The notes under the pieces are model-generated. The model ran no database searches and was not told the DNA's origin. It saw only the letters and a list, made by a program, of their open reading frames with translations. Positions 24,841 through 52,334 of a stretch of DNA of 52,334 nucleotides are shown here, piece after piece. Each line of letters begins with the position of its first letter. The stretch's first letter is position 1. This DNA is from Bacillota bacterium. GTDB lineage: Bacteria > Bacillota > Clostridia > Christensenellales > QALW01. Location of the stretch: positions 1 to 52,334 of the forward strand of contig JAQXIQ010000078.1 of the NCBI GenBank assembly GCA_029007865.1, written 5' to 3'. The position numbers and the translations under genes are program-made.

Positions 24841-25102
24841 TATGAAGGGGAGCTTAAACATCTCCATGCGCATTCCCAGAGAGCCGCGGCAAGGTGCAAG
24901 CGCGGCAGTGCGATGATGTTTCGGAACGCCCCGGAGCTTCCGACCGAAAGCTTTTTTTGCAAGTAGGCTCGGACGGGCAGCCCGTTACAGCAAAAAGCAT
25001 ACTTGTGCTTAAAGGAGTTCTGTACAAAGGCGTACGGTTCAGTTGGGTGGTACCGCGAGGTTACGGCTTCGTCCCAAGCTAAGGGATGATGCCGCTTTTT
25101 TA
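24841..25102 (+). promoter_or_regulatory. T-box riboswitch leader (tRNA-sensing attenuator)
   Basis: The Stem I AG-bay is AGAGAG (24878-24883). The distal loop carries GGTGCAA (24892-24898). The T-box sequence is AGTTGGGTGGTACCGCG (25041-25057). The terminator pairs GGCTTCGTCCC (25065-25075) with GGGATGATGCC (25083-25093), followed by GCTTTTTT. Confidence 0.85.
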
Positions 25103-25169
25103 TTACCCGGCAAGAGCCTGCGTCTTTTGTTTTTCCGGCACTGCTAAGCACCGAAAGGACGGATACGAC

Positions 25170-27239
25170 ATGAAAAGGAGCTGTTACTGCGGAAGCCTCC
25201 GGCTTTCCGACATAGGCAGGCACATAATTGCTCAGGGCTGGGTCCAGAGCAAGCGCGACATGGGCGGAGTTATCTTTATCGACCTGAGGGACCGAGAAGG
25301 CACGCTTCAGGTGGTCTTTGACGCCTCCAACCTTACAAGGGAGCATTTTGCCGCCGCCGAGCAGCTGAAAAACGAAAGCGTTATCAGCGTAGAGGGCGAC
25401 ATCCGCCACCGCAGCCAGGACACCTACAACCCGCGCATAGCCACGGGCGCCGTTGAGCTCAAGGCGGTCAGCCTGGAGGTGCTCTCCGAGGCGGAGCCCC
25501 TGCCCTTCCCGGTGGACGGTCATGCGCCGGTACGGGACGAGCTGCGGCTTAAATACCGTTTCCTGGACCTGCGCAGGCCCGCCATGCTGCAGAACCTCAG
25601 GCTCCGTCAGGCCATAGTGACCGCCGCGGAGGAATACCTGCGCGCGGACGGCTTCCTGCAGGTGGAAACCCCCATGCTCACCAAGAGCACGCCCGAGGGC
25701 GCACGGGACTATCTTGTCCCCTCCAGGGTGCATCCCGGAGAGTTTTACGCCCTGCCCCAGTCCCCGCAGGTGTTCAAGCAGCTGCTTATGCTGGGCGGGA
25801 TAGACAGGTACTATCAGGTGGCGCGCTGCTTCCGCGACGAGGACCTGCGCGCCGACCGACAGCCGGAATTCACCCAGATAGACATGGAGATGTCCTTTGT
25901 CGGGCAGGAGGATATCCTTGAATTTCTGGAAAAGCTGTTCCGCCACATCTTCAAAAGCGTAAGGGGCAGCTATCCCGAGCCCTTTGCCCGCCTCACCTGG
26001 CAGCAGGCAATGGATAAGTACGGCACCGACAAGCCGGATCTGCGCTTTGATATGCCCATAACCGACATCACCCATATAGCCCGCGGCTGCTCGTTTTCCG
26101 TGTTCCGCAGCGTCTGCGACGCCGGCGGCACCGTGCGTGCGCTCTGCGTCAAGGGCGGAGCCGCCTTTACCCGCGGCACAATAGAGGAGCTTACCGCCAA
26201 GGCTCTCTCCTACGGCGCCAAGGGCATGGCCTGGATAGCCATAAAGGAAAACGGCGAGTATAACTCCATACTGACCAAATACTTTACCCCTGCCGAAATG
26301 CAGGCCATAGTCTCCGAGGTTAAGGCGGAGCCGGGCGATTTCATACTGTTCGGCGCGGACAGCGTTGCGGCGGTGCGCCGGACTCTGGGCCAGCTGCGCC
26401 TGGACATAGCCGACATACAGGGCCTGCGCAGCAGCGAGGATTACAAATTCCTGTTTGTCACCGACTTTCCCATGTTTGAATACTCCGAGACGGAAAAGCG
26501 CTTTATGGCCATGCATCACCCCTTTACCATGCCCTACGCCGAGGATCTGCAGTACCTGTTTTCCGACCCGGCCAGGGTGCGCTCTCAGGCCTACGATGTG
26601 GTGCTTAACGGCACGGAGCTGGGCAGCGGCAGCATCAGAATACACCGCCGCGACATCCAGCAGACGGTATTTGAGGCTCTGGGCTTTTCGGACGACGAGA
26701 TACAGAAGCGCTTCGGCTTTTTCGTGGACGCCTTCAGATACGGCGCACCCCCGCACGGCGGCTTTGCCTTCGGGCTGGACCGCTTTACCATGCTGCTTGC
26801 CGGCGCGCAGTCGCTGCGCGACGTTATAGCCTTCCCCAAGCTCAAGGACGCCTCCTGCCCGATGACATGCGCACCGGGCACGGTAAGTGCGCAGCAGCTT
26901 GCCGAGCTTTCCCTTGCTCCCTCGGAGCAGAGCGAAGCACATTCAGCGCGCAGGGCCGCGGTGGAGGTGGACACGCGGCGCACCGCGGCGCTGTCCAAGC
27001 TGTCCGTTGACAGCTCGCAGCAAGCGGATATGAAAAAATCCCTTGAGGAAATGGCGGGCTTCGCCTCCCAGCTTTTGCAGGCCGGAGGCAGCGAGCAGTG
27101 CACGGAATTCGTAGGGCCTCTGCGCAACGTGCTGCGCGAGGACGAGGTCATCCCCTGCGCAGGCGGAGGCACCGACCTGCTCGCCGGAGCTCCGGAGGCG
27201 GCAGAGGGCTGCATTTTCGTACCCAAGGTGGTACAGTAA
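25170..27239 (+). CDS. aspS: Aspartate--tRNA ligase fused to a C-terminal GatC domain
   Basis: The ATG at 25170 lies downstream of the T-box terminator. The AspRS part has an OB anticodon domain, class-II motifs (FRDEDLRADRQPEFTQID; GLDRFTMLL...AFPK) and a GAD insert. The last 92 aa (26961-27236) carry GatC signatures (LSKLSV, LRNVLREDEV, FVPKVV). Confidence 0.9.
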   Translation: MKRSCYCGSLRLSDIGRHIIAQGWVQSKRDMGGVIFIDLRDREGTLQVVFDASNLTREHFAAAEQLKNESVISVEGDIRHRSQDTYNPRIATGAVELKAVSLEVLSEAEPLPFPVDGHAPVRDELRLKYRFLDLRRPAMLQNLRLRQAIVTAAEEYLRADGFLQVETPMLTKSTPEGARDYLVPSRVHPGEFYALPQSPQVFKQLLMLGGIDRYYQVARCFRDEDLRADRQPEFTQIDMEMSFVGQEDILEFLEKLFRHIFKSVRGSYPEPFARLTWQQAMDKYGTDKPDLRFDMPITDITHIARGCSFSVFRSVCDAGGTVRALCVKGGAAFTRGTIEELTAKALSYGAKGMAWIAIKENGEYNSILTKYFTPAEMQAIVSEVKAEPGDFILFGADSVAAVRRTLGQLRLDIADIQGLRSSEDYKFLFVTDFPMFEYSETEKRFMAMHHPFTMPYAEDLQYLFSDPARVRSQAYDVVLNGTELGSGSIRIHRRDIQQTVFEALGFSDDEIQKRFGFFVDAFRYGAPPHGGFAFGLDRFTMLLAGAQSLRDVIAFPKLKDASCPMTCAPGTVSAQQLAELSLAPSEQSEAHSARRAAVEVDTRRTAALSKLSVDSSQQADMKKSLEEMAGFASQLLQAGGSEQCTEFVGPLRNVLREDEVIPCAGGGTDLLAGAPEAAEGCIFVPKVVQ

Positions 27240-27320: not shown

Positions 27321-28766
27321 ATGAGTCAGATAACTTCCTACACAGTAACCCAGCTTATAAGCCAGAAGAAGCAAGGCCTTACCAGCCTTGATATAACCCT
27401 TGCCTATCTTGAGCGCATAAAGGCAAGCGGCAATAACGCCTATATCACCGTGACCGAGGAACAGGCGCTGCGGCAGGCAAAGGAGGCCGACGCGCGCACC
27501 GACGCCGGAGACTTAAGCGGCATCCCCTGCGCGATAAAGGACAACATCTGCACCAAAGGCATACGCACCACCTGCGCCTCCCGGATGCTGGAAAGCTTTG
27601 TTCCGCCATACAGCGCCACCGTTGCGGAGAAGCTGAATGCCGCGGGCTGCGTGACCCTGGGCAAGCTGAACATGGACGAGTTCGCCATGGGCTCCTCCAC
27701 CGAGACCAGCTATTTCGGCCCGACGCTCAACCCGCGCAATACCCTGTTCGTGCCCGGCGGCAGCTCGGGCGGCAGCGCGGCGGCGGTTGCGGCCTGCGAG
27801 GCTCCGTTTGCGCTGGGCAGCGACACCGGCGGTTCCATACGCCAGCCCGCCGCATTTTGCGGAGTGGTGGGCATGAAGCCCACCTACGGCCGCGTTTCCC
27901 GCAACGGGCTTGTGGCCTTTGCCTCGTCTCTTGACCAGATAGGCCCCATCACCCGCTGCGTGCAGGATAACGCCCTGATTCTGGACAGTATATGCGGGCT
28001 TGACCCCATGGACTCCACCAGTCTGGACTCACCGGCCGACTGCTCCTCCGATATCGGCAAGGATATAAAGGGTCTGCGCGTGGCTCTGCCGCCCGAGTTT
28101 CTCTCGCACGGCGTAAGCGATGAGGTGCGCTCTGCCATACTCAATGCGGCGCATACTCTGGAAGCCCTGGGAGCCGTGGTAACCCAGGAGCCCATGCCGT
28201 CGCTGCAGTACGCCCTGCCCGCCTACTATGTCATATCCTCCGCCGAGGCCTCCAGCAACCTGGCTCGCTTTGACGGCGTAAAATACGGCTACCGCACAAA
28301 GAATTTCGAAAGCATAGACGACATTTACAAAAACAGCCGCTCCGAGGGCTTCGGCAGCGAGGTCAAGCGCCGCATAATGCTGGGCTCCTTCGTGCTGAGC
28401 GCCGGCTACAGGGACGCCTACTACAAAAAGGCTCTCAGCGTGCGCACGGCGGTTATAAACGATTTTAAGCGGGTGTTCTCAAAGTGCGACTGCATACTCT
28501 CCCCTGTAGCACCCACTGCGGCATGGAAGCTGGGGCAGCACATGAGCGACCCCATGGCCATGTATATGGCGGATGTCTTTACAGTTCCGGTAAACATTGC
28601 GGGGCTGCCGGCGCTTTCTCTGCCCTGCGGGATAGGCGCAGGCAGTCTGCCCATAGGCGCACAGCTCATAGGCGACCGCCTGTCCGAAAGGCTGCTCTAC
28701 CGGTGCGGCTACGCCCTGGAGCAGGCGTTAAACATAACTTTTGACAAGGAGGACAAGTCCAGATGA
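27321..28766 (+). CDS. gatA: Asp/Glu-tRNA amidotransferase subunit A
   Basis: Amidase signature [12 protein letters not shown]; the sequence is GatA-like throughout. Confidence 0.95.
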
Positions 28767-30199
28767 ACGGTTACGAAATGGTCATAGGTCTGGAGACCCA
28801 TATCGAGCTTAAAACCAAATCCAAGATATTCTGCTCCTGTTCAACAGCCTTCGGAGCGGCGCCCAATACCCAGGTCTGCCCCGTATGCACGGGTATGCCG
28901 GGTACCCTTCCGGTGCTTAACGCCCAGGCTGTGGATTACGCCGTGACCGCAGGTCTTGCCACAAACTGCACCATTGCCTCCTTTTCCAAGCTGGACCGCA
29001 AGAATTATTTCTATCCCGACCTGCCCAAGGCATACCAGATATCGCAGTACGACCTGCCGCTGTGCAGCAACGGTTATCTCACGATCGAGACCCCGGAGGG
29101 TGAAAAGCGCATCGGCATAACCCGCATACACATCGAGGAGGACGCGGGCAAGCTCATCCACGGCAAGGAGGGCACCTATATCGATTTTAACCGCTGCGGC
29201 GTACCCCTTATCGAGGTGGTCAGCGAGCCCGACCTGCGCAGCGCCGCCGAAGTCAAGGCATACCTGCAGAAGCTGCGCGCCATAATGCTTTACATCGGCG
29301 TGTCGGACTGCAGGATGAACGAGGGCTCTCTGCGCTGCGACGTTAACCTTTCGGTGCGCAAAAAGGGCGAGCAGGCCTTCGGCACCCGCTGCGAAATGAA
29401 AAACCTGAACTCCTTTGTGTTTATCACCAAGGCCATAGAATACGAATTCCGGCGCCAGTGCGAGCTGCTGGAGCACGGCGGACGGGTGGAGCAGGAAACC
29501 CGCCGCTTTGACCAGGCGACCGGCAAGACCTACTCCATGCGCTCCAAGGAGGAGGCGGACGACTACCGATATTTCCCCGACCCGGATCTGCCGCCAATAG
29601 AGATCACTCCCCAGAGGCTGGAGCGTCTGCGCAGTGCCATTCCGCAGCTTCCCGACAAGCGCAAGCAGGATTATATACGCCTCTTCGGGCTCCCCTCCTC
29701 CTGCGCCGAATTGCTGGTGTCGGACAAATACGTCGCCGATTACTTTGAGCAGGCCGCTCCGCTGTGCCGCGATAAAGTCGAGCTTGCCAACCTGATAACG
29801 GGGGAGATATTCCGCCTTATGGGAGAGAATAACGCATCCGTAATCCCGGTAAGCCCCGCGCATCTTGCAAAGGCCGCGGACATGGCGTCGGAGGGCGAGA
29901 TCAACAGAGGCACCGCCAAAAAGCTGATAGCCGCTCTCTGGGAGGAAAACTGCGACCCGGCAGAATATGTGCGCAGGCATAATCTGCGCCAGATAAACGA
30001 CCCGGACACCCTGACGGAGCTGTGCCGCAAGGCCGTTGAGCAAAACCCGCAGGCACTCCGGGATTACCTGGGAGGCAAGCAGGCCGCGCTCCAGGCGCTG
30101 CTGGGCAAGGCAATGGGGCTGGCCTCCGGTCAGGCCAACCCGGCGCTGCTGCGGCAGAAGATGGACGAGCTGTTAAAGGAGCAGGCCGAGGGCAAATAG
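28763..30199 (+). CDS. gatB: Asp/Glu-tRNA amidotransferase subunit B
   Basis: A 4-nt overlap links it to gatA. The N-terminus [10 protein letters not shown]...[15 protein letters not shown] and the C-terminal YqeY-like tail are GatB-like. Confidence 0.95.
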
Positions 30200-40386: not shown

Positions 40387-40402
40387 GGCCTTCGAGTGCT
40401 AA
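40376..40402. promoter_or_regulatory. CIRCE operator (HrcA binding site)
   Basis: A perfect TTAGCACTC-N9-GAGTGCTAA. Confidence 0.95.
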
Positions 40403-40411
40403 CATGAGCAA

Positions 40412-40440
40412 AGTATATAACTGTTATTTGTTTTTGTCAA
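40412..40440 (-). promoter_or_regulatory. Sigma-A promoter of the hrcA-grpE-dnaK-dnaJ operon
   Basis: On the minus strand: TTGACA (40440-40435), a 17 nt spacer, then TATACT (40417-40412), just upstream of CIRCE. Confidence 0.75.
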
Positions 40441-40636
40441 TAGTTTTTATACATTTTTCCATGAACAATTTATTAACACTTTTGAACAATTTATCCCTCT
40501 GCGCCGTCAAAAAGCGCGGGATAACACCTGCGCCGAACCGGCTTGCCGGCAGGCGTTCCGCAAACAAAAAAGCGCAATATTTCCGCAGGTTTCCGTGTTA
40601 TGTTTTAATCTTTGACAAAAACAAATTTTATTGGTA

Positions 40637-40665
40637 TTGACATTATGTTTTTGCCAAGGTAAAAT
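40637..40665 (+). promoter_or_regulatory. Sigma-A promoter for the small-membrane-protein pair
   Basis: TTGACA (40637-40642), a 17 nt spacer, then TAAAAT (40660-40665). Confidence 0.6.
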
Positions 40666-40810
40666 ACAAAAGAGACAGATACCGCAAAGCCGGGAGGCTG
40701 CTGCGCGGCGTTAAGCCGGAATGCGGTATCGGAAAAGCAAAGGAAAAATGCTTTTCGTCGGAAAACAGGTACAATATCCGTGGAGTATCGTAAAACAAAA
40801 GGAGGGGCTT

Positions 40811-41092
40811 ATGAAAAAAAGAACAAAGACCGTTATTTATATATGTGTTTCCGCAATATGTGTTTTGGCGGTTTGCGTGATGCTTTGGTACGTCATGTCC
40901 TATACCCTGACAAGTGAATACAACGACTTATGGATAATAGGCAAGACCCGGGAACAGATCGAGGAACGCTACGGCCGGCTTACGGAACACGGACGCTTCG
41001 AGGGCTACAGACTGGGCTCCACGTCATATTACGCCATAGAGTTTAACAGCCGGGGCACAGCCGAAAGCGTTTACATTTATCGCGAGCCGTAA
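40811..41092 (+). CDS. Small membrane-anchored protein (93 aa), unknown function
   Basis: RBS AGGAGG precedes the ATG at 40811. An N-terminal TM helix (VIYICVSAICVLAVCVMLWYV) is followed by a ~60 aa soluble domain. Confidence 0.65.
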   Translation: MKKRTKTVIYICVSAICVLAVCVMLWYVMSYTLTSEYNDLWIIGKTREQIEERYGRLTEHGRFEGYRLGSTSYYAIEFNSRGTAESVYIYREP

Positions 41093-41104
41093 TGAGGTGC
41101 TTAT

Positions 41105-41398
41105 ATGAAAGCTAAAATATTCAACGCGCTTCGCGCGGTATTAACGGTTTTATCGTATTTTGCGTTTGCCTGTTTTGAAATGGGCGTTTCCGGTCATGTC
41201 AGAGGTCTGCTCAGGCAGGAAGGCAGCATGATCGCACTTGTGCTTTACGCGGCGGGTATGCTTATCGCCGTGGCGGGCATCTATCTGCTTTTGCTGTACA
41301 AAAAGCCCAACAAGGCGGCAAGGACGGCCGTCGCCTCCTCTGTGCTTATGGCAGTCCAGGTGCTTGTAACACTGCTGTGCAGTATTAAACCTTATTAA
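41105..41398 (+). CDS. Small integral membrane protein (97 aa, ~3 TM), unknown function
   Basis: GAGGTG lies upstream of the ATG at 41105, 12 nt after the previous stop. The composition is hydrophobic. Confidence 0.6.
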   Translation: MKAKIFNALRAVLTVLSYFAFACFEMGVSGHVRGLLRQEGSMIALVLYAAGMLIAVAGIYLLLLYKKPNKAARTAVASSVLMAVQVLVTLLCSIKPY

Positions 41399-41420
41399 AA
41401 ACACGGAAGCACAGCTTCCG

Positions 41421-41520
41421 CCGAACTTCCGCAGACAGCGCCTAACTTTCGCAGACGGCGCCGAACTTCCGCAGACGGCGCCGAACTTTCATAGACAGCG
41501 CCGAACTTCCGCAGACATAT
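41421..41520. repeat. 20-bp tandem repeat, 5 copies (CCGAACTTCCGCAGACGGCG and variants)
   Basis: Units start exactly at 41421, 41441, 41461, 41481 and 41501. Confidence 0.9.
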
Positions 41521-41522
41521 AA

Positions 41523-41548
41523 AGCCGCACGCTTTTTTGCGTGCGGCT
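41523..41548. terminator. Stem-loop between convergent genes (recN side)
   Basis: AGCCGCACGC-tttttt-GCGTGCGGCT. Confidence 0.6.
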
Positions 41549-41627
41549 AAACTGTTATTACGGATTACTATTACGGAAAACCCGGCATTCTGCGCGCCCT
41601 GCGCCCCTCGCCCGGGTGCGGCAAGGG

Positions 41628-43328
41628 TCAACCCTGCCGGAGCTGCAAGCGGAACTCCTCGGCTCTTTTGAGCATCTCCCGCGCGTGAGCCACGGCGATA
41701 TCGGTGACTTCGCCTCCGGCAAGCCGCGCGATCTCCCTCTCCCTGTCCATTCCCTCCACGGTCTCGGTCCGGGTCACGGCCTTGCCGCCGTCCTCGCTTT
41801 TGCTTACAAAAAAGTGCGCGGACGCCATTGCGGCGATCTGCGGCAGATGCGTTACGCACAAAACCTGGTGCGAAGCCGCTATCACCGCCATTTTTTCCGC
41901 GGTGACCTGTGCCATTTTACCGCTTATTCCGGTATCTATCTCGTCAAAAACCATGGTTTCAATTTCGTCGCTGTCCGCCATTATGCTCTTAAACGCCAGC
42001 ATAAACCTGCTCATCTCGCCCCCGGATATGACCTTTACAAGAGGCTTGAGCGGTTCCCCAAGATTGGCGGAAAACATGAACTCCGCCTCGTCAAAGCCGT
42101 CCGCCCTGTAGTTAGCGGTTTCCTCGCGGGGCATATCCTCAAAGCGCACTTTGAACACCGCGCTTTTCATGCCCAACACTTTAAGCTGAGTGTCCAGCTC
42201 GGACTCCAGGCGTGTGGCCGCCTCCCTGCGCAGGCGGCTAAGCTCCGCGCAGGCCTTATACAGCCTGCTGCGCGCCTCGGCGCACTGAGCCGTCAGCCTG
42301 CGTACCGTCTCCTCCGCGTTTGCCAGCTCCTCAAGCTGCAGACGCGCCGCGGCGGCAAAGCCGTTTACCTCCGCAATGTCCGCGCCGTATTTCCTGCAAA
42401 GCTGCTTTATAAGCTGCAGTCTGTCCTCCACCTGCTCCAGGCGTGCCGCGGGATCCTCAATGTCCTCCGCCCCGTCCAGCTCCGAGGATATGTCCTCCGC
42501 CTCGTAGCAGACGCTGCGCAGCCGCTCCAGCAGCGGCTCAAAGCTGCCGTCGCGCCGGGATATTTCCTCAAGCGCCTTGACCGCCACGGCCAGCGCCTCG
42601 CAGGCGCCGCCTTCCTCACCGTTGAGCGCCTCATGCGCAAGCTGAAGGTTCTGCGATATATATTCGGCGTTTGCCAATCTTCTTTTTTCCTTTTGCAGCT
42701 CCTCCTCCTCGCCCGGAGTGAGCCCGGCGGCCTCGATCTCATCAATCTGGAACCTTAAAATGTCCATTCTGCGCTCGCGCTCCCCGGGGCTGCCCCAGTC
42801 GGCGTGCAGGCGGCCGTAAATATCGGAATATTCGGCATAGCACTCGCCGCAGAGCCTGAGCGCATCCTTCAGCCCGCTCTGGGCATAGCTGTCCAACAGC
42901 TCCAGATGGCTCTCTTTGCGCAGCAGGGTCTGGTGCTCATGCTGGCCGTAAATGTCCACCAGATACCGCATGGCCCGCTTCAGCGCAGAAAGCGTGACCG
43001 TCCTGCCGTTGGCCTTTATCATGCTGCGGCCGTCCGCCGTTACGGTGCGCCGGATTATAAGAGTGTCGTCCGGCTCGATATCCAGAGCCTCGGCCACCCT
43101 GGCCGTATTTTTATCCCTTACGCAGAACACGCCCTCAATCTCCGCGGCGGAGGTGCCGGTGCGCACTAACTCCCTGTCGGTGCGGTCCCCCAGCAGCAGG
43201 TTAAGGGAATCCACCATTATGGACTTTCCTGCGCCGGTCTCACCCGTTATTACATTAAAGCCGTCGGAAAAGCAAACCGTGATATTGTCTATCAGAGCGA
43301 CATTTTTTATGCTGAGACTGTAAAGCAT
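41628..43328 (-). CDS. recN: DNA repair protein RecN
   Basis: Walker A GETGAGKS, long coiled coil, C-terminal SGGEMSR signature. Confidence 0.95.
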   Translation of the reverse strand: MLYSLSIKNVALIDNITVCFSDGFNVITGETGAGKSIMVDSLNLLLGDRTDRELVRTGTSAAEIEGVFCVRDKNTARVAEALDIEPDDTLIIRRTVTADGRSMIKANGRTVTLSALKRAMRYLVDIYGQHEHQTLLRKESHLELLDSYAQSGLKDALRLCGECYAEYSDIYGRLHADWGSPGERERRMDILRFQIDEIEAAGLTPGEEEELQKEKRRLANAEYISQNLQLAHEALNGEEGGACEALAVAVKALEEISRRDGSFEPLLERLRSVCYEAEDISSELDGAEDIEDPAARLEQVEDRLQLIKQLCRKYGADIAEVNGFAAAARLQLEELANAEETVRRLTAQCAEARSRLYKACAELSRLRREAATRLESELDTQLKVLGMKSAVFKVRFEDMPREETANYRADGFDEAEFMFSANLGEPLKPLVKVISGGEMSRFMLAFKSIMADSDEIETMVFDEIDTGISGKMAQVTAEKMAVIAASHQVLCVTHLPQIAAMASAHFFVSKSEDGGKAVTRTETVEGMDREREIARLAGGEVTDIAVAHAREMLKRAEEFRLQLRQG

Positions 43329-43339
43329 AAGGCCCTCCG

Positions 43340-43789
43340 TCAGTGCATCAGTTCCTGAATGAGTGCGGTGATAGGCGCAACCTTCTCATTGCAGCTTACC
43401 ACAATTATTACTGTGTCGTCCCCTGCCACGCAGCCCAGGATGTCCTCGTTGCTCAAGCCGTCGATCACCACCGCCACGGTGTTGGCGCTCCCCTGCATGG
43501 TTTTCAGCACTATGATATTGTTTGCGCTGCGCACATTCAGCACAGTGCTTGCGAATATTTTATGCAGGCGCTCCTGCTGTTCCTGTCTTACGCCGCTTTG
43601 TACGCTGTATCTGTACCGTCCGTCGGCGCACGGCGTTTTTATCAGGTTCAGCTCCTTGATATCGCGCGAGACCGTAGCCTGCGTAACATCATAGCCCTCC
43701 CGCTTGAGTATCAGGGCAAGCTCCTCCTGAGTCTGGACTACGCTGTCGCGGATTATCTCAAGTATCCTGAAATGTCTGGCAGATTTCAT
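43340..43789 (-). CDS. argR: Arginine repressor
   Basis: The N-terminal winged helix reads QEELALILKREGYDVTQATVSRDIKEL. The C-terminal GTIAGDDT-like motif reads GCVAGDDTV. Confidence 0.93.
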   Translation of the reverse strand: MKSARHFRILEIIRDSVVQTQEELALILKREGYDVTQATVSRDIKELNLIKTPCADGRYRYSVQSGVRQEQQERLHKIFASTVLNVRSANNIIVLKTMQGSANTVAVVIDGLSNEDILGCVAGDDTVIIVVSCNEKVAPITALIQELMH

Positions 43790-43969: not shown

Positions 43970-44794
43970 TTATTTAACGCTCCACTCGCTCAGCTTGGAG
44001 TTGAGACGCTGATAAAAGCTTTTGTCGGTCACCCGTATGAACCCTGCGGTAAACGGCGCTTTTTCCACTGTAAAGCCGTCCGCGCCACAGAGGGAAAGCT
44101 GGACTCCGTCAATGGCTATGACGCCGCTGCCCTCCGCCGTCTGCACGCGCAGAGTATCCCGAGAGGAAAATACATAAGGCCTTGCGCGCAGGGTATGTGC
44201 GCTTATAGGCGTCAGCAGCATGACCTCGGCGCCGGGAGCCGCTATGGGGCCGCCTGCCGAAAGGTTATAAGCCGTAGAGCCGGTAGGTGACGCCACCAGC
44301 ACGCCGTCGGCATAAAAGCTGTCCACCGCGTGGCCGCCCGCCGTTACGCGCACGTTTATCATGTGCTCGTCTGTGCGCCTGTGCAGAGCGATCTCGTTAA
44401 GGGCGTAAAGGGGTTCCCCCGCAACGGTACATTTAAGCAGCATGCGCTGCTCCACCGTATAATCTCCCGCCGCAAGCCTTGCCACCGCGCCATCCAGTTC
44501 GGAGAGCTCCACCTCGGAGAGAAAGCCCACTCTGCCTAAGTTTATGCCCAGCACCGGCACCGAATACACGGCGCACAGCTTGGACACCATCAGCAGGGTG
44601 CCGTCGCCGCCCAGGACAAACACCGCCTCGCACCTGCGGATAAAGCTCACCGTATCCATGCACTCTTCCAGACCCGGAGAACACCTCAGCAGCGGCTCAA
44701 AGCCGTACTTTTCAAGCAGTCCGGCCATTTTCTGCGCGCAGGACATATCGGCATCCTTATCGGTATTAACATATATGCCTATAACCTTAAACAT
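43970..44794 (-). CDS. nadK: NAD kinase
   Basis: The ATG at 44794 opens MFKVIGIYVN. The GGDGT motif (VLGGDGTLL) and NxGxLGFL-like INLGRVGFL are present. Confidence 0.92.
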   Translation of the reverse strand: MFKVIGIYVNTDKDADMSCAQKMAGLLEKYGFEPLLRCSPGLEECMDTVSFIRRCEAVFVLGGDGTLLMVSKLCAVYSVPVLGINLGRVGFLSEVELSELDGAVARLAAGDYTVEQRMLLKCTVAGEPLYALNEIALHRRTDEHMINVRVTAGGHAVDSFYADGVLVASPTGSTAYNLSAGGPIAAPGAEVMLLTPISAHTLRARPYVFSSRDTLRVQTAEGSGVIAIDGVQLSLCGADGFTVEKAPFTAGFIRVTDKSFYQRLNSKLSEWSVK

Positions 44795-44802
44795 TGTTTT
44801 CA

Positions 44803-44838
44803 ACTCCACGAAAGACTCCACGAAAAACTCCACGAAAG
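44803..44838. repeat. 12-bp tandem repeat, 3 copies (ACTCCACGAAAG)
   Basis: Units start at 44803, 44815 and 44827, immediately upstream of the nadK start. Each unit reads CTTTCGTGGAGT on the coding strand, so it contains a GGAG. Confidence 0.9.
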
Positions 44839-44881
44839 GCATTATACTACAAAATGCATAAATATACAAGGTTGAATTTAA

Positions 44882-46729
44882 TTATCCGTCAATTTTGGTC
44901 GTTGCCGTGCGTTTTCCGGCCGGCAAGCCCGTTGTCTGCGCCCGCAGCCGCGCAAATATCCTGTTTGCTATGCCCTGCGCATCCAATCCGCAGGTCTTCT
45001 GTTGAGCAGACACGGGAGCGTGCAGGGCAAAACCCTTTTCTCCGCTTATGCACAGCAGGCGGGAGGCGTCAATAATGGCGGATACCGCTTCCCCAAGTCC
45101 TCCGGGCGCCGCATTGTCCTCCGCGACGCATACCACGGGTGCAGTAATGGAGCGCAGCAGCTCCGTATCGATGGGACTTATAAAGCAGGCGTTGATAACG
45201 CAGGCGCTTACCCCCCGCTCCTCCAGCAGCTCGGCTGCCCCGACCGCCTGCCCCAGCAGCGCGCCGAAGGCGATTATGACGGCGTCGGCGCCGTGCCGCA
45301 CGGTCTGCCATCTGAAAAGCTCGGTGTGCCCGATGTCGGCGTCCATTCCGCAGCCCTTGGGGTAGCGTATGGCGCACGGCCCGGGAAGGGTCAGCGCAAG
45401 CTCCAGCATATCACGCAGCTGGCTGTTGCACGCGGGAGCCATTACGGTTATTCCGTACTGCCTCAGAATGGCTATATCGTATGCTCCCTGATGCGTGCGT
45501 CCGTCCTGTCCGACAAACCCGGCTCTGTCCACGCACAGCGTTACCGGCAGCCTGTTAAGCATTATATCATGGAAGATCTGGTCCGCGCCTCTTTGCAGAA
45601 ATGTGGAATAAATGGCGGCAAACGGCCGCATTCCGCCCTTTGCCAGTCCTGCGGAAAGCCCTAACGCGTGCTGCTCGGCAATGCCCACGTCAAAAAAGCG
45701 CTCCGGAAAGCTTGCGGCAAAGCCGCTCAGCCCCGTGCTTCCCGTCATTCCGGCAGTAACGGCGCATACGCGTTTGTCCCGCCCGGCAAGCTCGGTAAGC
45801 ACGCTGCCGAAGCAGGAGGTAAAATCCTGTTTGCTGCTTTTGGGTGCCCCGGACGGCGCCACGCCGTGGAATGCCGCGGGGTTTTGCTCCGCCTCCGCGC
45901 TGCCTTTGCCCTTTTTTGTGCGGACATGTACTATAACGGGCACCGTTTCCTCTTTTGCGCGCCGCAGTATGTTTTTAAGCTCGCGGATATTGTGACCGTC
46001 CACAGAGCCGATATATTTTATGCCCATGTTGTCAAACACGGTATTGCCTATAAGAATATAGCGGAAAAGGTTTTTAATGCTGAGCGCGGCGCGGAACAGA
46101 TATCCGCCCACCAGCGGAATACCCTTCAAAAAGCGCTCCAGGCCTCGCTTGAGCCCGGCATATCCGCGCGCCGTCCTGAGCTTTACCAGATGCCTGGAAA
46201 TGGCGCCGACATTGCGGGAAATGGACATTTCGTTGTCGTTGAGCACAATTATCAGCGGAGTCTTGTTGTAGCCCAGGTCGTTTACCGCCTCCAGATTCAT
46301 ACCGCCTCCGAAGGCTCCGTCCCCCACTACGGCCACTATATGAAAATGCTCTCCCTTGATGTCCCTTGCCCTTGCAAGGCCCAGAGCCGTGGATACCGCT
46401 GTAGCGCTGTGTCCCACGACAAATGGGTCATGCTCGCTCTCGTCAGGGTCGGGAAAGCCGCCCGTACCGTTTTCCGAGCGCAGATGCTCAAGGCTCCGCC
46501 CGGTGAGCAGCTTGTGCGTATAGGTCTGATGCCCCACGTCGAACACCAGGCGATCCTTGGGGGAGTCAAAGACGCAATGAAGCGCAAGCGTCAGTTCCAC
46601 CGTCCCCAGGTTTGAGGCCAGATGACCGCCGTTTGCGCTTGTAGCCCGCAGCAGCTCCTCCCGTATATTCCGGGCAGCCTCTGCAAGCTGTTCATCATTC
46701 ATCGCCTTGATTTCTGCAATGCCGTACAC
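44882..46729 (-). CDS. dxs: 1-deoxy-D-xylulose-5-phosphate synthase
   Basis: The GTG at 46729 overlaps the upstream stop (TAGTG). The protein shows GGHLASNLGTVELT, DVGHQTYTHKLLTGR and the TPP motif GDGAFGGGM...LNDN. Confidence 0.95.
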   Translation of the reverse strand: MYGIAEIKAMNDEQLAEAARNIREELLRATSANGGHLASNLGTVELTLALHCVFDSPKDRLVFDVGHQTYTHKLLTGRSLEHLRSENGTGGFPDPDESEHDPFVVGHSATAVSTALGLARARDIKGEHFHIVAVVGDGAFGGGMNLEAVNDLGYNKTPLIIVLNDNEMSISRNVGAISRHLVKLRTARGYAGLKRGLERFLKGIPLVGGYLFRAALSIKNLFRYILIGNTVFDNMGIKYIGSVDGHNIRELKNILRRAKEETVPVIVHVRTKKGKGSAEAEQNPAAFHGVAPSGAPKSSKQDFTSCFGSVLTELAGRDKRVCAVTAGMTGSTGLSGFAASFPERFFDVGIAEQHALGLSAGLAKGGMRPFAAIYSTFLQRGADQIFHDIMLNRLPVTLCVDRAGFVGQDGRTHQGAYDIAILRQYGITVMAPACNSQLRDMLELALTLPGPCAIRYPKGCGMDADIGHTELFRWQTVRHGADAVIIAFGALLGQAVGAAELLEERGVSACVINACFISPIDTELLRSITAPVVCVAEDNAAPGGLGEAVSAIIDASRLLCISGEKGFALHAPVSAQQKTCGLDAQGIANRIFARLRAQTTGLPAGKRTATTKIDG

Positions 46730-47295
46730 TATTTATCGCCCTTATCGGCAACAGACATTATCCTGCCTATGGTAAAGACAATGCTCTTGCTCTTTTTATG
46801 CGCCACGGTCTTGCCGAAGGCCTTGCCGCCTATGGTCAGGCACGCCACGCATGCGCTTATAATAATGGATATCCACAGCCGGAGCGTCTCACTGCTTCCC
46901 GACGCCGCCGACATAATCATATACACTATGGCCGTTGTGGCGGCACCGGTGACAATGCCGCATATATCCCCTATGACATCGCAGCAAATGCTGGCCACCT
47001 TTTCGTTATTGCGGATAAGCCGCAGTGCCGACTTTGCGCCCTTGACCCTCCGGCTGGACATTGCCACCAGGGGCGCAGGGTCGCAGACCGTCACGGCGGT
47101 GCCTATAATATCGGCAAATATGCTTATGGCTATAAGCAGCAGCAGTATCAGCACCGACAGCAGGATGGATGCGGAATTTGTAACCGATTCGGCCAAAAAG
47201 GAAAAAACAACGGTGAGAGCAAAAGACATGGCGGTAACAACGGCAGTCCACCGCGCTCCCGATAGCTTTTTATGGTGTTTTTCTCTGTCCTTCAT
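46729..47295 (-). CDS. oapA: Four-TM membrane protein, proposed OLE-associated protein A
   Basis: The 188 aa protein has four predicted TM helices. It lies directly downstream of the structured ORF-free RNA region and is translationally coupled to dxs. This is the ole-oapA-dxs arrangement known from Firmicutes. Confidence 0.6.
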   Translation of the reverse strand: MKDREKHHKKLSGARWTAVVTAMSFALTVVFSFLAESVTNSASILLSVLILLLLIAISIFADIIGTAVTVCDPAPLVAMSSRRVKGAKSALRLIRNNEKVASICCDVIGDICGIVTGAATTAIVYMIMSAASGSSETLRLWISIIISACVACLTIGGKAFGKTVAHKKSKSIVFTIGRIMSVADKGDK

Positions 47296-47299
47296 TGCA

Positions 47300-47894
47300 A
47301 AAAGTTCTCCAAAATGAGGTGGCAGCCTGCCCTGTAAACCTTGCGGCTTAGGTCGAGCCGGATTTCCCTGCGGACTGCTCCCCGTCGCCGATGAAGCGGT
47401 TTCCCTTTAAAGTCCGTACGGCAAGATCGCTCCGTGCCGCGCTCGATAACCACTCAGACCGCACTATAATCCATGGCAGGCATATTCAGTCTAGGGGATT
47501 TCCCCGACAGCAGAAATTGCCTCTAGCCTCTTTTGCAGCAAGGATTTCAAAGAGCGATCGCCTCGCGCGACATGGCCGTGACGCACGGACGTTGTTCCCT
47601 TTTCCCTCATTGCCACTTCAAGGCAGGCTACACTGTACACAGCGGCCTCGCCACCGCATAGCAGGTTCTTCATACCCAGTAACACCTCCCGTGAGGCAGT
47701 TACCCAAATATGTCTCCACGGAGGCTGGGTCAACGCCCGCATGCCATTGCGGATCGCCCTTCCTCCTTAACTCCCAGCACAGACCCCAAACTGGGCGTTC
47801 AAAGCCTGCACCAGAAACTTCATCGATATGCCCTTTGACGATAGTTTAACCCCGCCTTCAAGACAATCAATGCTGACTAGAATACTGTACCACC
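47300..47894 (-). ncRNA. ole: OLE (ornate, large, extremophilic) RNA candidate, ~595 nt
   Basis: The ~690 bp GC-rich gap has no credible ORF and carries its own consensus promoter. It contains many short GC hairpins (e.g. GGGGAAAUCCCC, CCUCACGGGAGG). The length and position, immediately upstream of a 4-TM protein-dxs-nadK-argR-recN cluster, match the described OLE locus. Confidence 0.6.
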
Positions 47895-47900
47895 GTAACT

Positions 47901-47929
47901 ATTATAACACAGTGCCGGAAAAATTTCAA
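47901..47929 (-). promoter_or_regulatory. Consensus sigma-A promoter driving the OLE-like RNA
   Basis: On the minus strand: TTGAAA (47929-47924), a 17 nt spacer, then an extended -10 TGtTATAAT (TATAAT = 47906-47901). Confidence 0.75.
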
Positions 47930-47985
47930 CTCCGGGAACAGAAATATTTAACAATATACCGACATTGCAGCCGGCGCCGCGCTCT

Positions 47986-49140
47986 TTACACAAGCTCCTG
48001 ACGCTTCTCCCGGCTGTGGAACCTTACCGACAGTATAAGCCCTATTGCCGCCATACTTGTCACAAGGTTCGTGCCTCCCTTGCTTATAAAGGGCAGAGGT
48101 ATCCCGGTAATGGGCATAATGCCTATGGTCATGCCGATATTTTCAAAGATGTGGAACATAAACATAAACATGATGCCGTAGATTATAAGCGCGCCGAATT
48201 TATCCTGCGTGCGGCGCGCCAGCAGCCACATCCTGAAAATCAGCAGCGCATATATGACAAGCAGTATAAAACAGCCCACAAACCCGAAGGTCTCGGCAAT
48301 GGCAACAAATATAAAGTCGGTCTCTATGACGGGTATATAGTTTAGCTGGCTCAGCGCTCCCACGCTGAAGAGTCCCTTGCCGGCAAACCCGCCCGAGCCT
48401 ATAACGGCAATGGAACGGTTGAGCTGCAGGAATTCGTCGCCTTCGCCGCCGTTTACAAAGTAGTTGATTATCCTGGAGCGCTGTCTGTCCCCCATCAGCA
48501 CGAACCAGGCAAAGACGCAGAATGCGGCGCCCGCCAGCCCGAAAGCCCCCAGATAGCGCAGCTTGACCCCGGACATAAAGGCCATGCCCACAAAAGCCAC
48601 GACATATACTATGGTAGTGCCTATGTCCATCTGATACAGCAGCACGGCAATAATGGCCACAAACGCCCCGGCCGCCGGCAGGACGTCCACAAAGCGTTCC
48701 ATGGGGCGGTCGGCAAGGAATTTTGCGCACACCAGTATCATGGCCAGCTTTACTATCTCCGAGGGCTGCAGCGTAATGCTTCCGCTGGAGTTAAGATATA
48801 TCCAGCCCTGAGTTCCTCCGCGGGTTTTGCCGAAGAACACCACCAGCAGCAGCAGTCCCACGCCGGCCGCCAGCACCAGATACCAGATCTTTGAGTACAG
48901 TCGGTAATCGATTAGCATAAGCAGTACCGTTACCGCAAGTCCCACCGCAAAGAATATCGCCTGCAGCCCCACCACGGAAAAATCAAGGTTGGCCATGATC
49001 TCGCCGAAGGTGAGCTCCTCCCCGGTAAACGGGCTGGCCGTGGCTATGGTTATGGCAATAAGGCCTATCATAAACAGCAAAAGCACTATTATAGGCAGAA
49101 TATATTCTATATTTTCAAAACTTTTTTTATCAAACCGCAT
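47986..49140 (-). CDS. rodA: FtsW/RodA/SpoVE-family peptidoglycan glycosyltransferase
   Basis: The protein has ~10 TM helices and SEDS motifs (PSEIVKL, ETDFIF, GIPLPFISKGGTN). The gene lies downstream of minDE. Confidence 0.88.
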   Translation of the reverse strand: MRFDKKSFENIEYILPIIVLLLFMIGLIAITIATASPFTGEELTFGEIMANLDFSVVGLQAIFFAVGLAVTVLLMLIDYRLYSKIWYLVLAAGVGLLLLVVFFGKTRGGTQGWIYLNSSGSITLQPSEIVKLAMILVCAKFLADRPMERFVDVLPAAGAFVAIIAVLLYQMDIGTTIVYVVAFVGMAFMSGVKLRYLGAFGLAGAAFCVFAWFVLMGDRQRSRIINYFVNGGEGDEFLQLNRSIAVIGSGGFAGKGLFSVGALSQLNYIPVIETDFIFVAIAETFGFVGCFILLVIYALLIFRMWLLARRTQDKFGALIIYGIMFMFMFHIFENIGMTIGIMPITGIPLPFISKGGTNLVTSMAAIGLILSVRFHSREKRQELV

Positions 49141-49224: not shown

Positions 49225-49497
49225 TCAGGAAGCCAGCGGCGCCTCCACGCTCTTTGGGGAAAAGGATACGTTCAGCGTAAGCACGGTGCTGCCGCCCTCG
49301 CGCCTGCTGGAAATTGCAAAGAGCATATCCTCCTGTGAATTCATCTCGCGCAGCAGTATTTCCCGCACGGAGCCCTGTATCTGCTCCATGACCGACGAAG
49401 ATACGCACAGTCTGTCGCCGGCTATGACCTCCTTGAGTCTCTTTTTGACCGTTCCCGCGCTTCCGCGCCTGCGGAATATCTTTTTTAACAGCTTCAT
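49225..49497 (-). CDS. minE: Cell division topological specificity factor MinE
   Basis: RBS GGGAGG precedes the ATG at 49497. The 90 aa protein has an N-terminal amphipathic/basic segment (MKLLKKIFRRRGS...KKRLKEVIAGDR). Confidence 0.85.
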   Translation of the reverse strand: MKLLKKIFRRRGSAGTVKKRLKEVIAGDRLCVSSSVMEQIQGSVREILLREMNSQEDMLFAISSRREGGSTVLTLNVSFSPKSVEAPLAS

Positions 49498-49511
49498 ATG
49501 TACGCCTCCCG

Positions 49512-50306
49512 TCAGCCTGCGGCCTTTACGCCCAGCAGCTTCTGCACCCATGCGCTCATCCCGTGCTTTCTGTCCGGTATTTCCCTCAGCCCGGCCAGCT
49601 TCTGGGCAATTTTTCTGTATTCCTGTCCGGCGGCGGACCGCACGGAATAGATAAGCGGCTCTCCCAGGTTTGCCGCCCTGACCACAAGCGGATCCTCCGG
49701 CACTGCGCCAACCGCTTTAAGTCCCAGTATCTCCTCTATGTCCTCCACGCTCATCATCTCCCTTTTGCGCACAAGGTCGGCCCGCACCCTGTTTACCACC
49801 AGGCGCACGCCCTCCACCTCACTGGCCGCAAGTAACCCCGCCACTCGGTCGGCGTCGCGCACCGACGCAATCTCAGGAGTGCACACAAGCACCGCCTCCT
49901 CAGCGCCCTCCACGGCATTGCTGAAGCCCTGCTCAATTCCCGCAGGGCAGTCTATCAGAATAAAATCATAGCTGTCCCGCACTTCCTGTATCAGGTTTTT
50001 AAGCTGTCCCTCCTTCAGCGCATCCTTGTTGCGCGTCTGGGACGCCGGCAGCAGCGCCAGCCTGTCGTTGCGCTTATTGCGCACCACCGCCTGTCTGAGC
50101 CTGCATCTGCCCGCAAGCACATCCACAACATCATACACTATCCTGTTCTCCACCCCCATCATCAGGTCCAGGTTCCGAAGCCCCAGGTCGGCGTCGATAA
50201 GCAGCACGTTTTTGCCCTGCTCCGCAAGAGCGGCGCCGATGTTTACCGTCGCCGTGGTCTTCCCCACGCCGCCCTTACCCGATGTAACAACAATTGCCTT
50301 ACCCAT
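49512..50306 (-). CDS. minD: Septum site-determining ATPase MinD
   Basis: The ATG at 50306 opens MGKAIVVTSGKGGVGKTT (deviant Walker A). IDCPAG and a C-terminal amphipathic helix are present. Confidence 0.93.
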   Translation of the reverse strand: MGKAIVVTSGKGGVGKTTATVNIGAALAEQGKNVLLIDADLGLRNLDLMMGVENRIVYDVVDVLAGRCRLRQAVVRNKRNDRLALLPASQTRNKDALKEGQLKNLIQEVRDSYDFILIDCPAGIEQGFSNAVEGAEEAVLVCTPEIASVRDADRVAGLLAASEVEGVRLVVNRVRADLVRKREMMSVEDIEEILGLKAVGAVPEDPLVVRAANLGEPLIYSVRSAAGQEYRKIAQKLAGLREIPDRKHGMSAWVQKLLGVKAAG

Positions 50307-50665
50307 AACACTAATCCTTTCTTTTTTTGCATCCCGGCTGATAGCGCCGCCGCAGGAACGCTCATTCCGGCGTATTTTGCGGCTCCGCCCGCTCCGCTTT
50401 ACTAATACCAATTCCTTCCTTTTATCCGTTTTCCTTTGAGTTGTTTTGCCGAATTATTACTCTTTGCGGCGAATGCTACGCATAAGGTTATTCTTGCGCT
50501 TGGGACAGCGTATAATATCGGGCCTTGCGGCAAAAAAAATGCAGAAAGCATATCGCCTTCTGCATATAACACATTATATATGGGTTTGCACAGCACAATC
50601 CGAGCGTTTTAAGCTTATACCCCCGAAGCCAAAGGCCACACAAACAGTTCTTATGAAATAAAAGT

Positions 50666-50707: not shown

Positions 50708-52063
50708 TCAGCTGATCGGAATAATGGTTCCGTCTATGGTCAACACCAAATCAATTGCTGCAGAATACAGGCTGATATAGCTGCCGAGATCCTCGTCGGC
50801 TATCTCTGCGCCGTTGGCAAAGTATGTGCAGCCATCCAGTGTAACCTTGCAGCCGCCTGCTCTGACAGAGAGGAGATACTGCTTGTTGCCGGTGGTCTGA
50901 TTTGCCTCGATACGGCAGTTCTTAAAGGTCAGATCAACACTTGCTGTATCCGTATTGATAACAACGGTAGCAAAGTCGTTCCAGCCGTCAGCGTTATAGC
51001 CCTTATCGTTGTTGCCTATAAGGGTGCAGTTTTCAAAGGTGGCCTTTGTGCCTGCGGACCAGGTCTGGAACGCGCACCAGCCGGTGATAGTGGCATTCCT
51101 GACAACAACATCGACATTGTCGTTGTCGCCTGCAATGTTAAGCGCATAATAGTTAGCAGAAACCGAGGAGTTGTCCACAACTATGGTAACATCGGTGGTA
51201 CCGTAAACCGAAACGCCGCGGGTGTATGCACCGCTGATCGGGCCCACGACATCAACACCGGAAAGGGTGAGGATTATAGGCTCGGTGTTGTCGGTAATAT
51301 TGATAACGCGGTCTTTATTATCGGGAGCAAGCAGCTTGCCGTTTTCGGAGCCGTATATAGTAACATCGCTTTTAATCTCAATTACATCAGGCATCTGAAT
51401 AGGCGCAGTCAGTACAACATCGTTACCGCTTGCAAGAGCCTCGGCCAGTTCGCCGGCAGTAGCTACGGGGATTGCATACTCGGCGTCCTTATCATACTGA
51501 TTATTCGTGCTGTCAGACTCCACGGTATCCTGAGTTGCGTAAACGGTAATGGCAATGTTATCAATGGACTTGCCCTGATACTCGTTGCCGGCATCTTCCT
51601 TCATGTGACCCTTTATGGTCAGCGTATCGGATGCGCCAACTGCAAGAGCATGGTCGGCGTCAAGAGCGGTAGTCCCGGAAGTATTGGTAATCGTCCACTC
51701 GATAGCTTGGTTAAGTTCGGCGTCGCCCTGAATGCCGGTGATAACAATCTTATATTTGAGTGCAAGATTACCGTTGTTCTTTATAACGATGGGCTGAAGC
51801 TCATAGGTACAGCCCGGCTCCCAGAGGATTTCATCCTGCTCTCTGCCATCCGCGGCTACCCAGCCCAGTGTCTCGCCCTCAAGGCTGTTGCCTCTCTCGT
51901 CAAGCAGCAGGATCTCCAGCGTTCCTGCCTGAATCTTGTTAACTGCGGTGGATGCCGAATCGGTAAACCACGCAAAGGTGGTGCCTACCAGCATCGCCAC
52001 GCAGACAAGCATCGCCATAACGGAAAGCAGCAATGCACGCTTTGTCGCTTTTGTGTTTGTCAT
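50708..52063 (-). CDS. Secreted protein with a SipW-type (TasA/camelysin-like) N-terminal region and a right-handed beta-helix domain
   Basis: RBS GGAGTG precedes the ATG at 52063. The N-terminus is MTNTKATKRALLLSVMAMLVCVAMLVGTTFAWFTDSAS...AGTL. The C-terminal half has repeated N.T/I..C/N turns (VRNATITGW, FENCTLIGNN, FKNCRIEANQ). Confidence 0.75.
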   Translation of the reverse strand: MTNTKATKRALLLSVMAMLVCVAMLVGTTFAWFTDSASTAVNKIQAGTLEILLLDERGNSLEGETLGWVAADGREQDEILWEPGCTYELQPIVIKNNGNLALKYKIVITGIQGDAELNQAIEWTITNTSGTTALDADHALAVGASDTLTIKGHMKEDAGNEYQGKSIDNIAITVYATQDTVESDSTNNQYDKDAEYAIPVATAGELAEALASGNDVVLTAPIQMPDVIEIKSDVTIYGSENGKLLAPDNKDRVINITDNTEPIILTLSGVDVVGPISGAYTRGVSVYGTTDVTIVVDNSSVSANYYALNIAGDNDNVDVVVRNATITGWCAFQTWSAGTKATFENCTLIGNNDKGYNADGWNDFATVVINTDTASVDLTFKNCRIEANQTTGNKQYLLSVRAGGCKVTLDGCTYFANGAEIADEDLGSYISLYSAAIDLVLTIDGTIIPIS

Positions 52064-52334
52064 TCTAAACACTCCTTTTTTTATTTTTTCGGCGTTTGGT
52101 TATTTAGCCGCTCCGGATAATGCCGCCAAAACCGGAGGCGCGCTTACGGCTATTTTACACCGTTTGCCGGTCTGCACGTTACCAAAAACGTGTGAATACC
52201 CCGGGAGGCTTGCATCCTCGAACTGTGCGAGCGTGCACTTATGCGATTCAACCGCCGCTTTTGGCTGTCTTTTCTGCGACTGTCCAAGTGCCGTTTTCGT
52301 TTTCTGTAATTGTATAGTTTGCTCTTTCGTTATG

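Follow-up and report, generated by a model that had tools for sequence, protein, structure and literature searches.

The 52,334-nucleotide contig JAQXIQ010000078.1 (hereafter the window), from the assembly GCA_029007865.1 of a Bacillota bacterium, contains a 690-bp gap on the minus strand between the end of rodA (47986) and the start of an open reading frame (ORF) of 188 amino acids (47295). This gap almost certainly encodes a full-length OLE (ornate, large, extremophilic) RNA, and the adjoining gene its membrane partner, OapA. When the whole window was scanned against Rfam 15 at gathering thresholds, the sole match was the OLE family, RF01071, at 47909..47303 of the minus strand with a score of 476.8 bits (E 6.5e-137; gathering score 50). 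The match is untruncated, spanning model positions 1-616 of 616. A sequence-only reading of the same DNA had proposed an OLE RNA for the gap and OapA homology for the 188-residue protein. The minus-strand search with RF01071 that it called for is positive over the full length of the model, and the homology test of the protein is likewise positive, with four helices, a DxxxD motif, CNNM similarity, and adjacency to OLE. Its description of the gap as 690 bp devoid of a plausible ORF is correct, as are its sequence-level statements on two ORFs of 83 and 152 amino acids that lie within it.

Conservation of the OLE fold

The extent of the RNA gene and the structural elements relevant to its protein partners are as follows.

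47303..47909, minus strand: OLE RNA gene, extent of the RF01071 match (Rfam covariance model)
47888..47894, minus strand: 5' strand of helix P1, GGUGGUA, pairing with 47324..47318
47318..47324, minus strand: 3' strand of helix P1, UGCCACC, pairing with 47894..47888 and closing the whole RNA
47817..47830, minus strand: J4a/5 conserved single-stranded segment CAUAUCGAUGAAG, before P5 (invariance in the 40-OLE alignment)
47419..47439, minus strand: P13 hairpin, capped by a GCGA (GNRA) tetraloop (47430..47427), its 5' strand carrying one unpaired C (model alignment)
47381..47398, minus strand: P14.1 hairpin with a GCGA tetraloop at 47388..47385 (model alignment)

Projection of the model structure onto the window sequence gives canonical pairs at 140 of the 154 model base pairs, and the conserved helices P2-P14.1 are kept in the model alignment. 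The sole departure from the consensus is a small hairpin at model positions 424-435, which is missing in the window RNA and is poorly conserved (lower-case) in the family consensus. Of three hairpins quoted in the sequence-only reading, all are present in the sequence, and GGGGAAAUCCCC and CCUCACGGGAGG are hairpins of the OLE model; GCCGUACGGAC forms no hairpin itself and in the model alignment joins P13 to the stem that follows.

Comparative support for the fold comes from an alignment of 40 OLE RNAs, consisting of the window sequence and 39 others recovered in this analysis. Standard pairs occupy 83.6% of the model base-pair cells, versus 41-45% after a shift of the 3' partners by 1-3 columns; the structure used for these counts was projected from the window's own model alignment, which favors the unslid register. 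Two-sided changes are found at 109 of the 154 pairs, and the observed values were reached by none of 500 shuffles. The size of the difference between the paired and slid registers, together with the many compensatory changes, is as expected of a real conserved fold. Approximately one quarter of the ∼600 nt of OLE is invariant across the distant lineages in this alignment.

Helix P1 carries no pairing annotation in the Rfam model; 97.8% of its cells are paired across the 40 sequences and five of its seven pairs show compensatory changes. The J4a/5 segment CAUAUCGAUGAAG contains the palindrome AUCGAU, and positions 83-92 of the window OLE are invariant in the alignment. In Halalkalibacterium halodurans, the kink turn (k-turn) bound by the protein OapC maps to J4a/5 plus J5/6 (PMC9723947). 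The segments AUCGAUGAAG and GAGUUAAGG around P5, which would take part in a putative k-turn, are present in the window RNA and invariant or nearly so among the 40 OLEs. P13 reads CGGCA-C-GGA[GCGA]UCU-UGCCG (47439..47419), and all eight of its pairs show compensatory changes. Docking of OapB in H. halodurans requires the GNRA loop and the one-nucleotide bulge of P13 (PMC7936274), and the predicted docking site of this type is intact in the window OLE. A weak secondary OapB site in H. halodurans is P14.1 (PMC7936274), of which the GGCGAC is invariant in the alignment.

The OapA protein

46729..47295, minus strand: oapA, 188 amino acids, ATG at 47295 (sub-threshold match to PF01595, CNNM)

The 188-residue protein matches PF01595 (CNNM/DUF21) at 26.9 bits, below the cut-off of 28.4, and has no other Pfam domain, CBS and CorC included. 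An NCBIfam search with the protein gave no match. OapA proteins are known to form the next-best cluster after the true MpfA proteins in PF01595 searches (PMC11332333). Hydropathy analysis places four hydrophobic segments at residues ∼16-38, 43-70, 100-129, and 137-161, and an AlphaFold2 (AF2) model has long helices at 13-40, 44-70, 97-130, and 136-167 (mean predicted local distance difference test, pLDDT, 78.4). The DxxxD motif, which separates OapA from CNNM domains (PMC11332333), is D106-V-I-G-D110. Residues D106, G109, and D110, as well as the motif T154-x-G-G-K-A-F, are invariant in 25 homologs down to 39% identity.

A Foldseek search with the AF2 model returned membrane domains of CorB (7M1T, 7M1U) or CorC (7CFF, 7CFG) at all of PDB ranks 1-6, with probabilities of 0.69-1.00 and template-modeling (TM) scores of 0.31-0.56. 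The same resemblance to the CorB/CorC fold has been reported for H. halodurans OapA (PMC11332333). Sequence searches of the PDB with the protein and with a 25-sequence profile yielded only a chance match, Caenorhabditis elegans humpback-2; the link to CorB/CorC is therefore at the level of the fold only, no solved relative of OapA being detectable by sequence.

The window protein thus resembles OapA in its length (∼190 amino acids), four predicted transmembrane helices, DxxxD motif, and obligate adjacency to ole, and also in its weak CNNM/DUF21 similarity without cytosolic CBS/CorC domains and its predicted fold nearest to CorB (7M1U/7M1T). It differs from the named OapA proteins in that it is at most 49% identical to its nearest homolog among the GTDB species representatives, and its binding of RNA is presumed by analogy. 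The OapA membrane domain is distantly homologous and structurally similar to that of MpfA, CorB, and CorC, the CNNM Mg2+ transporters. Unlike these, OapA has four helices rather than three, the DxxxD motif, an RNA partner, and no CBS-pair/CorC_HlyC domains. MpfA is anticorrelated with OLE across Bacillota (PMC11332333).

The window protein is deposited as NCBI MDD6204312.1 (locus tag PUC05_04910) and is labeled "hypothetical protein" in the public record. Automatic oapA gene calls are often extended upstream into the OLE RNA, which inflates the lengths of the database proteins. In a relative of the window (locus L085), the called ORF 318-1028 (P0005, 236 amino acids) starts at 318 while the OLE runs to ∼442, and several other OapA homologs are called at 230-325 amino acids.

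Gene order in the window and across genomes

The genes flanking ole and oapA in the window are listed in the order of transcription.

49512-50411, minus strand: minD, upstream of rodA (TIGR01968, 341 bits)
49225-49551, minus strand: minE, upstream of rodA (weak match, 33.3 bits)
47986..49140, minus strand: rodA (SEDS family), upstream neighbor of ole (PF01098, 248.8 bits)
44882..46729, minus strand: dxs, GTG start (TIGR00204, 625.9 bits; cut-off 465.95)
43970..44869, minus strand: nadK (NAD kinase), 12 nt past dxs
43340..43789, minus strand: argR (arginine repressor; TIGR01529, 142.3 bits)
41628..43328, minus strand: recN (DNA repair protein; TIGR00634, 524.3 bits)

The stop codon of oapA and the GTG of dxs share one base (ATAGTG at 46731-46727). 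Because of this overlap, translation of the two genes is probably coupled. The spacing of 12 nt between dxs and nadK leaves no space for tlyA between them. On the 3' side of rodA, only a weak terminator-like hairpin is present (47975..47958). The gene order given in the sequence-only reading, namely the dxs overlap followed by nadK, argR, and recN, rodA/minDE upstream in place of xseAB-ispA, and the absence of tlyA between dxs and nadK, is confirmed in each respect by the annotation, the TIGRFAM matches, and the sequence.

The generality of this arrangement was assessed in 80 fetched GTDB loci encoding OapA homologs, with neighborhoods typed by tblastn. OLE lies directly upstream of the oapA homolog on the same strand in all 75 loci that are testable, the contigs of the other five ending before the position. 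A single-sequence nhmmer search detected OLE, on the same strand, in 70 of these loci, and Rfam detected it in five more, at 224-258 bits. The commonest order across the 80 loci is spoIIIAH-asp23-nusB-xseA-xseB-ispA-[OLE]-oapA-dxs-tlyA-nadK-argR-recN-spoIVB, with which the neighborhood given in the sequence-only reading (ispA-ole-oapA-dxs-tlyA-nadK-argR-recN) agrees. Lineages differ widely in what precedes ole: the immediate 5' neighbor is ispA in ∼25 loci, tmk in nine, and xseA in three, while others have lon-engB, thrS, nrdD-nrdG, dacA-rluB, or a DUF819 gene. Almost every other locus with both dxs and nadK has tlyA between the two; one unrelated locus (L038) also lacks it there. Neither rodA nor minDE was found within 10 kb of ole in any of the 80 GTDB loci.

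Closer relatives were obtained through exact-protein look-ups of metagenome matches (L081-L086). The order minD-minE-rodA-[OLE]-oapA-dxs is present in L081-L084 (JGI metagenomes) and in L086 (NCBI GCA_054298635.1). The OapA proteins of these contigs are 74% and 70% identical to that of the window, and the OLE RNAs of the relatives with this junction are ∼86% identical to the window OLE, with L081 scoring 475.3 bits against RF01071. Where the contigs of the relatives reach far enough, nadK-argR-recN follow without tlyA, and in L085 nadK stands directly after dxs. The junction and the loss of tlyA are common to the closest metagenomic relatives of the window, and hence they are a clade trait, a lineage-specific and inherited rearrangement with an apparent single origin. 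Both ole and oapA stayed intact after the rearrangement, and relatives at 70-74% OapA identity keep both the arrangement and a high-scoring OLE, which points to purifying selection since then. The weight that the sequence-only reading placed on these two differences is not upheld, the 5' neighbor being variable across lineages and the junction and tlyA loss being clade-wide.

According to a recent proposal, the OLE particle extends to the peptidoglycan wall and signals the state of the envelope (PMC12265935). It is unlikely that the placement of ole-oapA-dxs-nadK-argR-recN behind minD-minE-rodA has been selected because it links the OLE particle functionally to wall synthesis. If true, such a linkage would offer independent genomic support for the OLE-envelope proposal.

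The GTDB representatives searched do not include the species of the window: the best match to its OapA is only 49% identical and lies, as does the closest GTDB relative of its OLE, in L001 (QALW01000021.1), labeled 'MAG: Selenomonadales bacterium CIM:MAG 469' (MAG, metagenome-assembled genome), where OLE is at 9271-9864 and oapA at 10001-10552, with lon and engB upstream. The OLE family counts ∼2,800 representatives in GTDB genomes, and Negativicutes is the one Bacillota class reported without OLE (PMC11332333). Either the Selenomonadales label of L001 is loose or L001 is an exception to the OLE-free Negativicutes. Outer-membrane or lipopolysaccharide genes, looked for in the window as a sign of a diderm (Negativicutes) host, were absent, and a fused IspH-S1 protein and a protein with a SipW-type signal peptide encoded in the window fit a Bacillota host, presumably an anaerobe.

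Promoter and predicted transcript ends

47901..47929, minus strand: sigma-70-type promoter of ole, -35 TTGAAA, 17-nt spacer, extended -10 TGtTATAAT (consensus scan)
47307..47317, minus strand: 3' tail UCAUUUU right after P1, then the GGAG ribosome-binding site of oapA (sequence)

The promoter recognized in the sequence-only reading was found at 47929..47901, with 11 of 12 consensus matches plus the TG, and is the best promoter-like site in the region. The region contains three such sites versus 1.5 ± 1.3 in shuffles, a count that by itself is not significant, and so the argument for the promoter rests on its position and quality. In a scan, across 76 loci, of the 85 nt that precede the conserved 5' motif CAGUAUUCUAGUCA, a -35/-10 pair with a score of at least 9 was found in 68, loci with ispA directly upstream included. 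In most of those loci the -10 box ends 13-25 nt from CAGUAUUCUAGUCA. Given the AT-richness of many of these genomes, a single match has little meaning, and the weight lies on the recurrence of the position. In H. halodurans, expression of ole rises by >100-fold when its proximal promoter is included, and the mapped 5' ends lie close to where P1 begins (PMC3413148). An own promoter was therefore rejected as a distinguishing trait of the window locus, since it is a published property of OLE and is seen in 68 of the 76 loci. The suggestion that independent promotion is a difference tied to the rodA context falls on the same counts.

The first RF01071 positions align with the -10 box, with the 5' 15 nt of the match overlapping it, and the mature RNA therefore probably starts at ∼47894. 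The predicted transcription start is ∼47894-47896, and the mature RNA probably extends from ∼47894 to 47311-47318, or ∼580-595 nt. At the other end, the scan detected no minus-strand terminator-like site between 47303 and 47295, and there is no separate terminator hairpin ahead of oapA. The ribosome-binding site of oapA is 7 nt past P1, and its start codon is 8 nt beyond the 3' end of the model. Across OLE loci, the mean T fraction after P1 is 0.51 over the first 12 nt and 0.26 over the 48 that follow. Many loci have a T/U-rich stretch directly after the 3' strand of P1, including the window (47311-47317), L081, L086, L001, L030, L004, and L016. The tract is strongest in the nearest relatives of the window (CCACC-UUAUUUUU), while the window itself has only UCAUUUU. 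P1 with its U-tract resembles an intrinsic terminator in which the entire 590-nt RNA takes the place of the hairpin. A smaller possibility is that the two form a leaky terminator, in which case folding of the 590-nt RNA would set the level of the oapA-dxs mRNA.

Comparison with known systems and proposed function

The window OLE corresponds to the full-length OLE of H. halodurans C-125 in its 616 of 616 model positions, helices P2-P14.1, and P13 GNRA hairpin with bulge, as well as in the invariant J4a/5 and J5/6 segments and the proximal promoter of its own. The loci share oapA directly downstream, followed by dxs, nadK, argR, and recN. They differ in that the window has minD-minE-rodA rather than xseA-xseB-ispA upstream, no tlyA between dxs and nadK, no hairpin at 424-435, and a very short ole-oapA gap with the ribosome-binding site 7 nt after P1. 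The host of the window is an uncultured gut-type Bacillota MAG known from sequence alone, not an alkaliphilic Bacillus. Two reduced types of OLE, variant 1 (TANB77) and variant 2 (RF39), likewise come from uncultured gut Bacillota and are MAG-only (PMC11332333). Unlike these variants, the window OLE is unreduced: model positions 199-370 are all matched, the corresponding helices P7, P8, and P9 form, and the tip of P13 retains an intact OapB site. It is thus of the full-length type and not variant 1 or 2, and it is one more ordinary member of the known family, with no feature off the family definition.

By homology with H. halodurans, the window OLE may function as a membrane-bound stress-response ribonucleoprotein particle (RNP) (PMC3413148, PMC11332333, PMC12265935, PMC7936274, PMC9723947). 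RNA polymerase would start at the near-consensus promoter (47929-47901), ∼7 nt before P1, and part of the transcripts would read on into oapA-dxs-nadK-argR-recN, read-through being probable because no separate terminator precedes oapA. A discrete ∼590-nt RNA would have its 3' end at the short U-tract that follows P1, either directly or through trimming. Such an RNA would be expected to be abundant and stable, to dimerize, and to be held at the membrane by OapA dimers. The RNP may make the cell more tolerant of cold, short-chain alcohols, poor carbon sources, excess Mg2+, and similar stresses. Given its distant relationship to CNNM/MpfA, OapA probably contributes the handling of ions and may move or sense divalent ones.

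Alternative explanations

The identification of ole and oapA meets no contradicting evidence. The CorB/CorC fold match is weak in absolute terms (best E 6.8e-3, TM 0.48-0.56). The 3' end of the OLE appears poorly defined, the tract after P1 having only four U's and abutting the ribosome-binding site of oapA. All functional statements are transferred by analogy from one model species of another class, Bacilli. Genes for oapB/YbzG and oapC/YbxF were not found in the window, none of its ∼60 ORFs in 52 kb having a KOW or L7Ae domain; ∼40-55% of OLE-carrying species are without one of OapB/OapC (PMC11332333).

The region might instead be a long cis-acting 5' leader of the oapA-dxs-nadK-argR-recN operon, similar to an attenuator or riboswitch and never released separately. 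The lack of a separate terminator hairpin before oapA, the placement of the oapA ribosome-binding site 7 nt past P1, and the recurrence at other loci of a terminator- or attenuator-like P1 with a U-rich stretch agree with this view. It is nevertheless very improbable, as the RNA belongs at full length to a family whose H. halodurans representative is discrete, very stable, and abundant, gives a single northern band, and works in trans as an RNP with OapA, OapB, and OapC (PMC3413148, PMC9723947). Invariance of about one quarter of 600 nt across distant lineages is also far beyond the needs of a leader, and a discrete RNA and co-transcription are mutually compatible.

That the gap is protein-coding, with the 152-aa plus-strand ORF (47391-47849) or the 83-aa minus-strand ORF (47491-47742) as a real gene, has next to no chance of being correct. 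Both ORFs are open in the window, where a G+C content of 55% gives many spurious long ORFs. Pfam matches are lacking for both, extra stops or frameshifts interrupt the frames in homologous DNA (78-86% identical) from relatives, and substitutions track base-pairing rather than codons. Both ORFs were rejected as genes on the absence of Pfam matches and the broken frames. Equally negligible is the probability that the gap holds a decaying, non-functional remnant, left when rearrangement took away xseAB-ispA and tlyA. Some organisms lacking OapA are reported to carry defective ole genes (PMC11332333), and one small hairpin (model 424-435) is missing here; that hairpin is optional and poorly conserved in the family, and the window oapA is intact with all of its invariant residues. 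The bit score of the window RNA is among the highest of the OLEs scored here, all conserved segments are intact, 140 of the 154 pairs are canonical, and the arrangement persists in relatives at 70-74% OapA identity, whose OLE scores equally high.

Other features of the contig

Several other genes were noted elsewhere in the window. The aspartyl-tRNA synthetase (AspRS) ORF at 25086-27239 (plus strand) has an in-frame C-terminal GatC domain (Pfam, residues 644-712, 25.3 bits) and is followed by gatA (27321-28766) and gatB (28763-30199). It looks like an AspRS-GatC fusion, which would be a covalently linked transamidosome part. A single ORF of 652 amino acids (17710-19668, minus strand) fuses IspH (LytB) to four S1 RNA-binding domains and is another isoprenoid-pathway gene on the dxs contig. 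Two GMP-synthase-like genes lie 2 kb apart on the plus strand, at 22-1470 and 3715-4695. One is a full-length guaA; the other, of 326 amino acids, lacks the glutamine amidotransferase domain and consists of the ATP-pyrophosphatase and C-terminal domains alone.

Nearer to the ole locus, recN is followed in L085 by spoIVB and spo0A, whereas the window instead has hrcA and dnaJ of the heat-shock cluster. The 1.2 kb between hrcA and recN (40387-41627) contain only short plus-strand ORFs (78, 123, and 97 amino acids) with no Pfam match. Directly upstream of minD, the minus-strand gene at 50708-52072 encodes a protein of 454 amino acids whose N terminus matches the camelysin/TasA-like Peptidase_M73 family and which has a SipW-dependent-type signal peptide (TIGR04088) and a right-handed beta-helix region.

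Significance

OLE is among the largest and best-conserved bacterial non-coding RNAs without a known biochemical activity, and each carrier lineage adds some comparative data. The host described here is uncultured and makes the question of OLE function no more testable. The small additions made by this locus are a full-length OLE in an uncultured gut-type Bacillota and a very compact ole-oapA junction. The clade-specific neighborhood, with minDE-rodA upstream and no tlyA, is another and reduces the stable core of the locus to ole-oapA(-dxs) with its own promoter.

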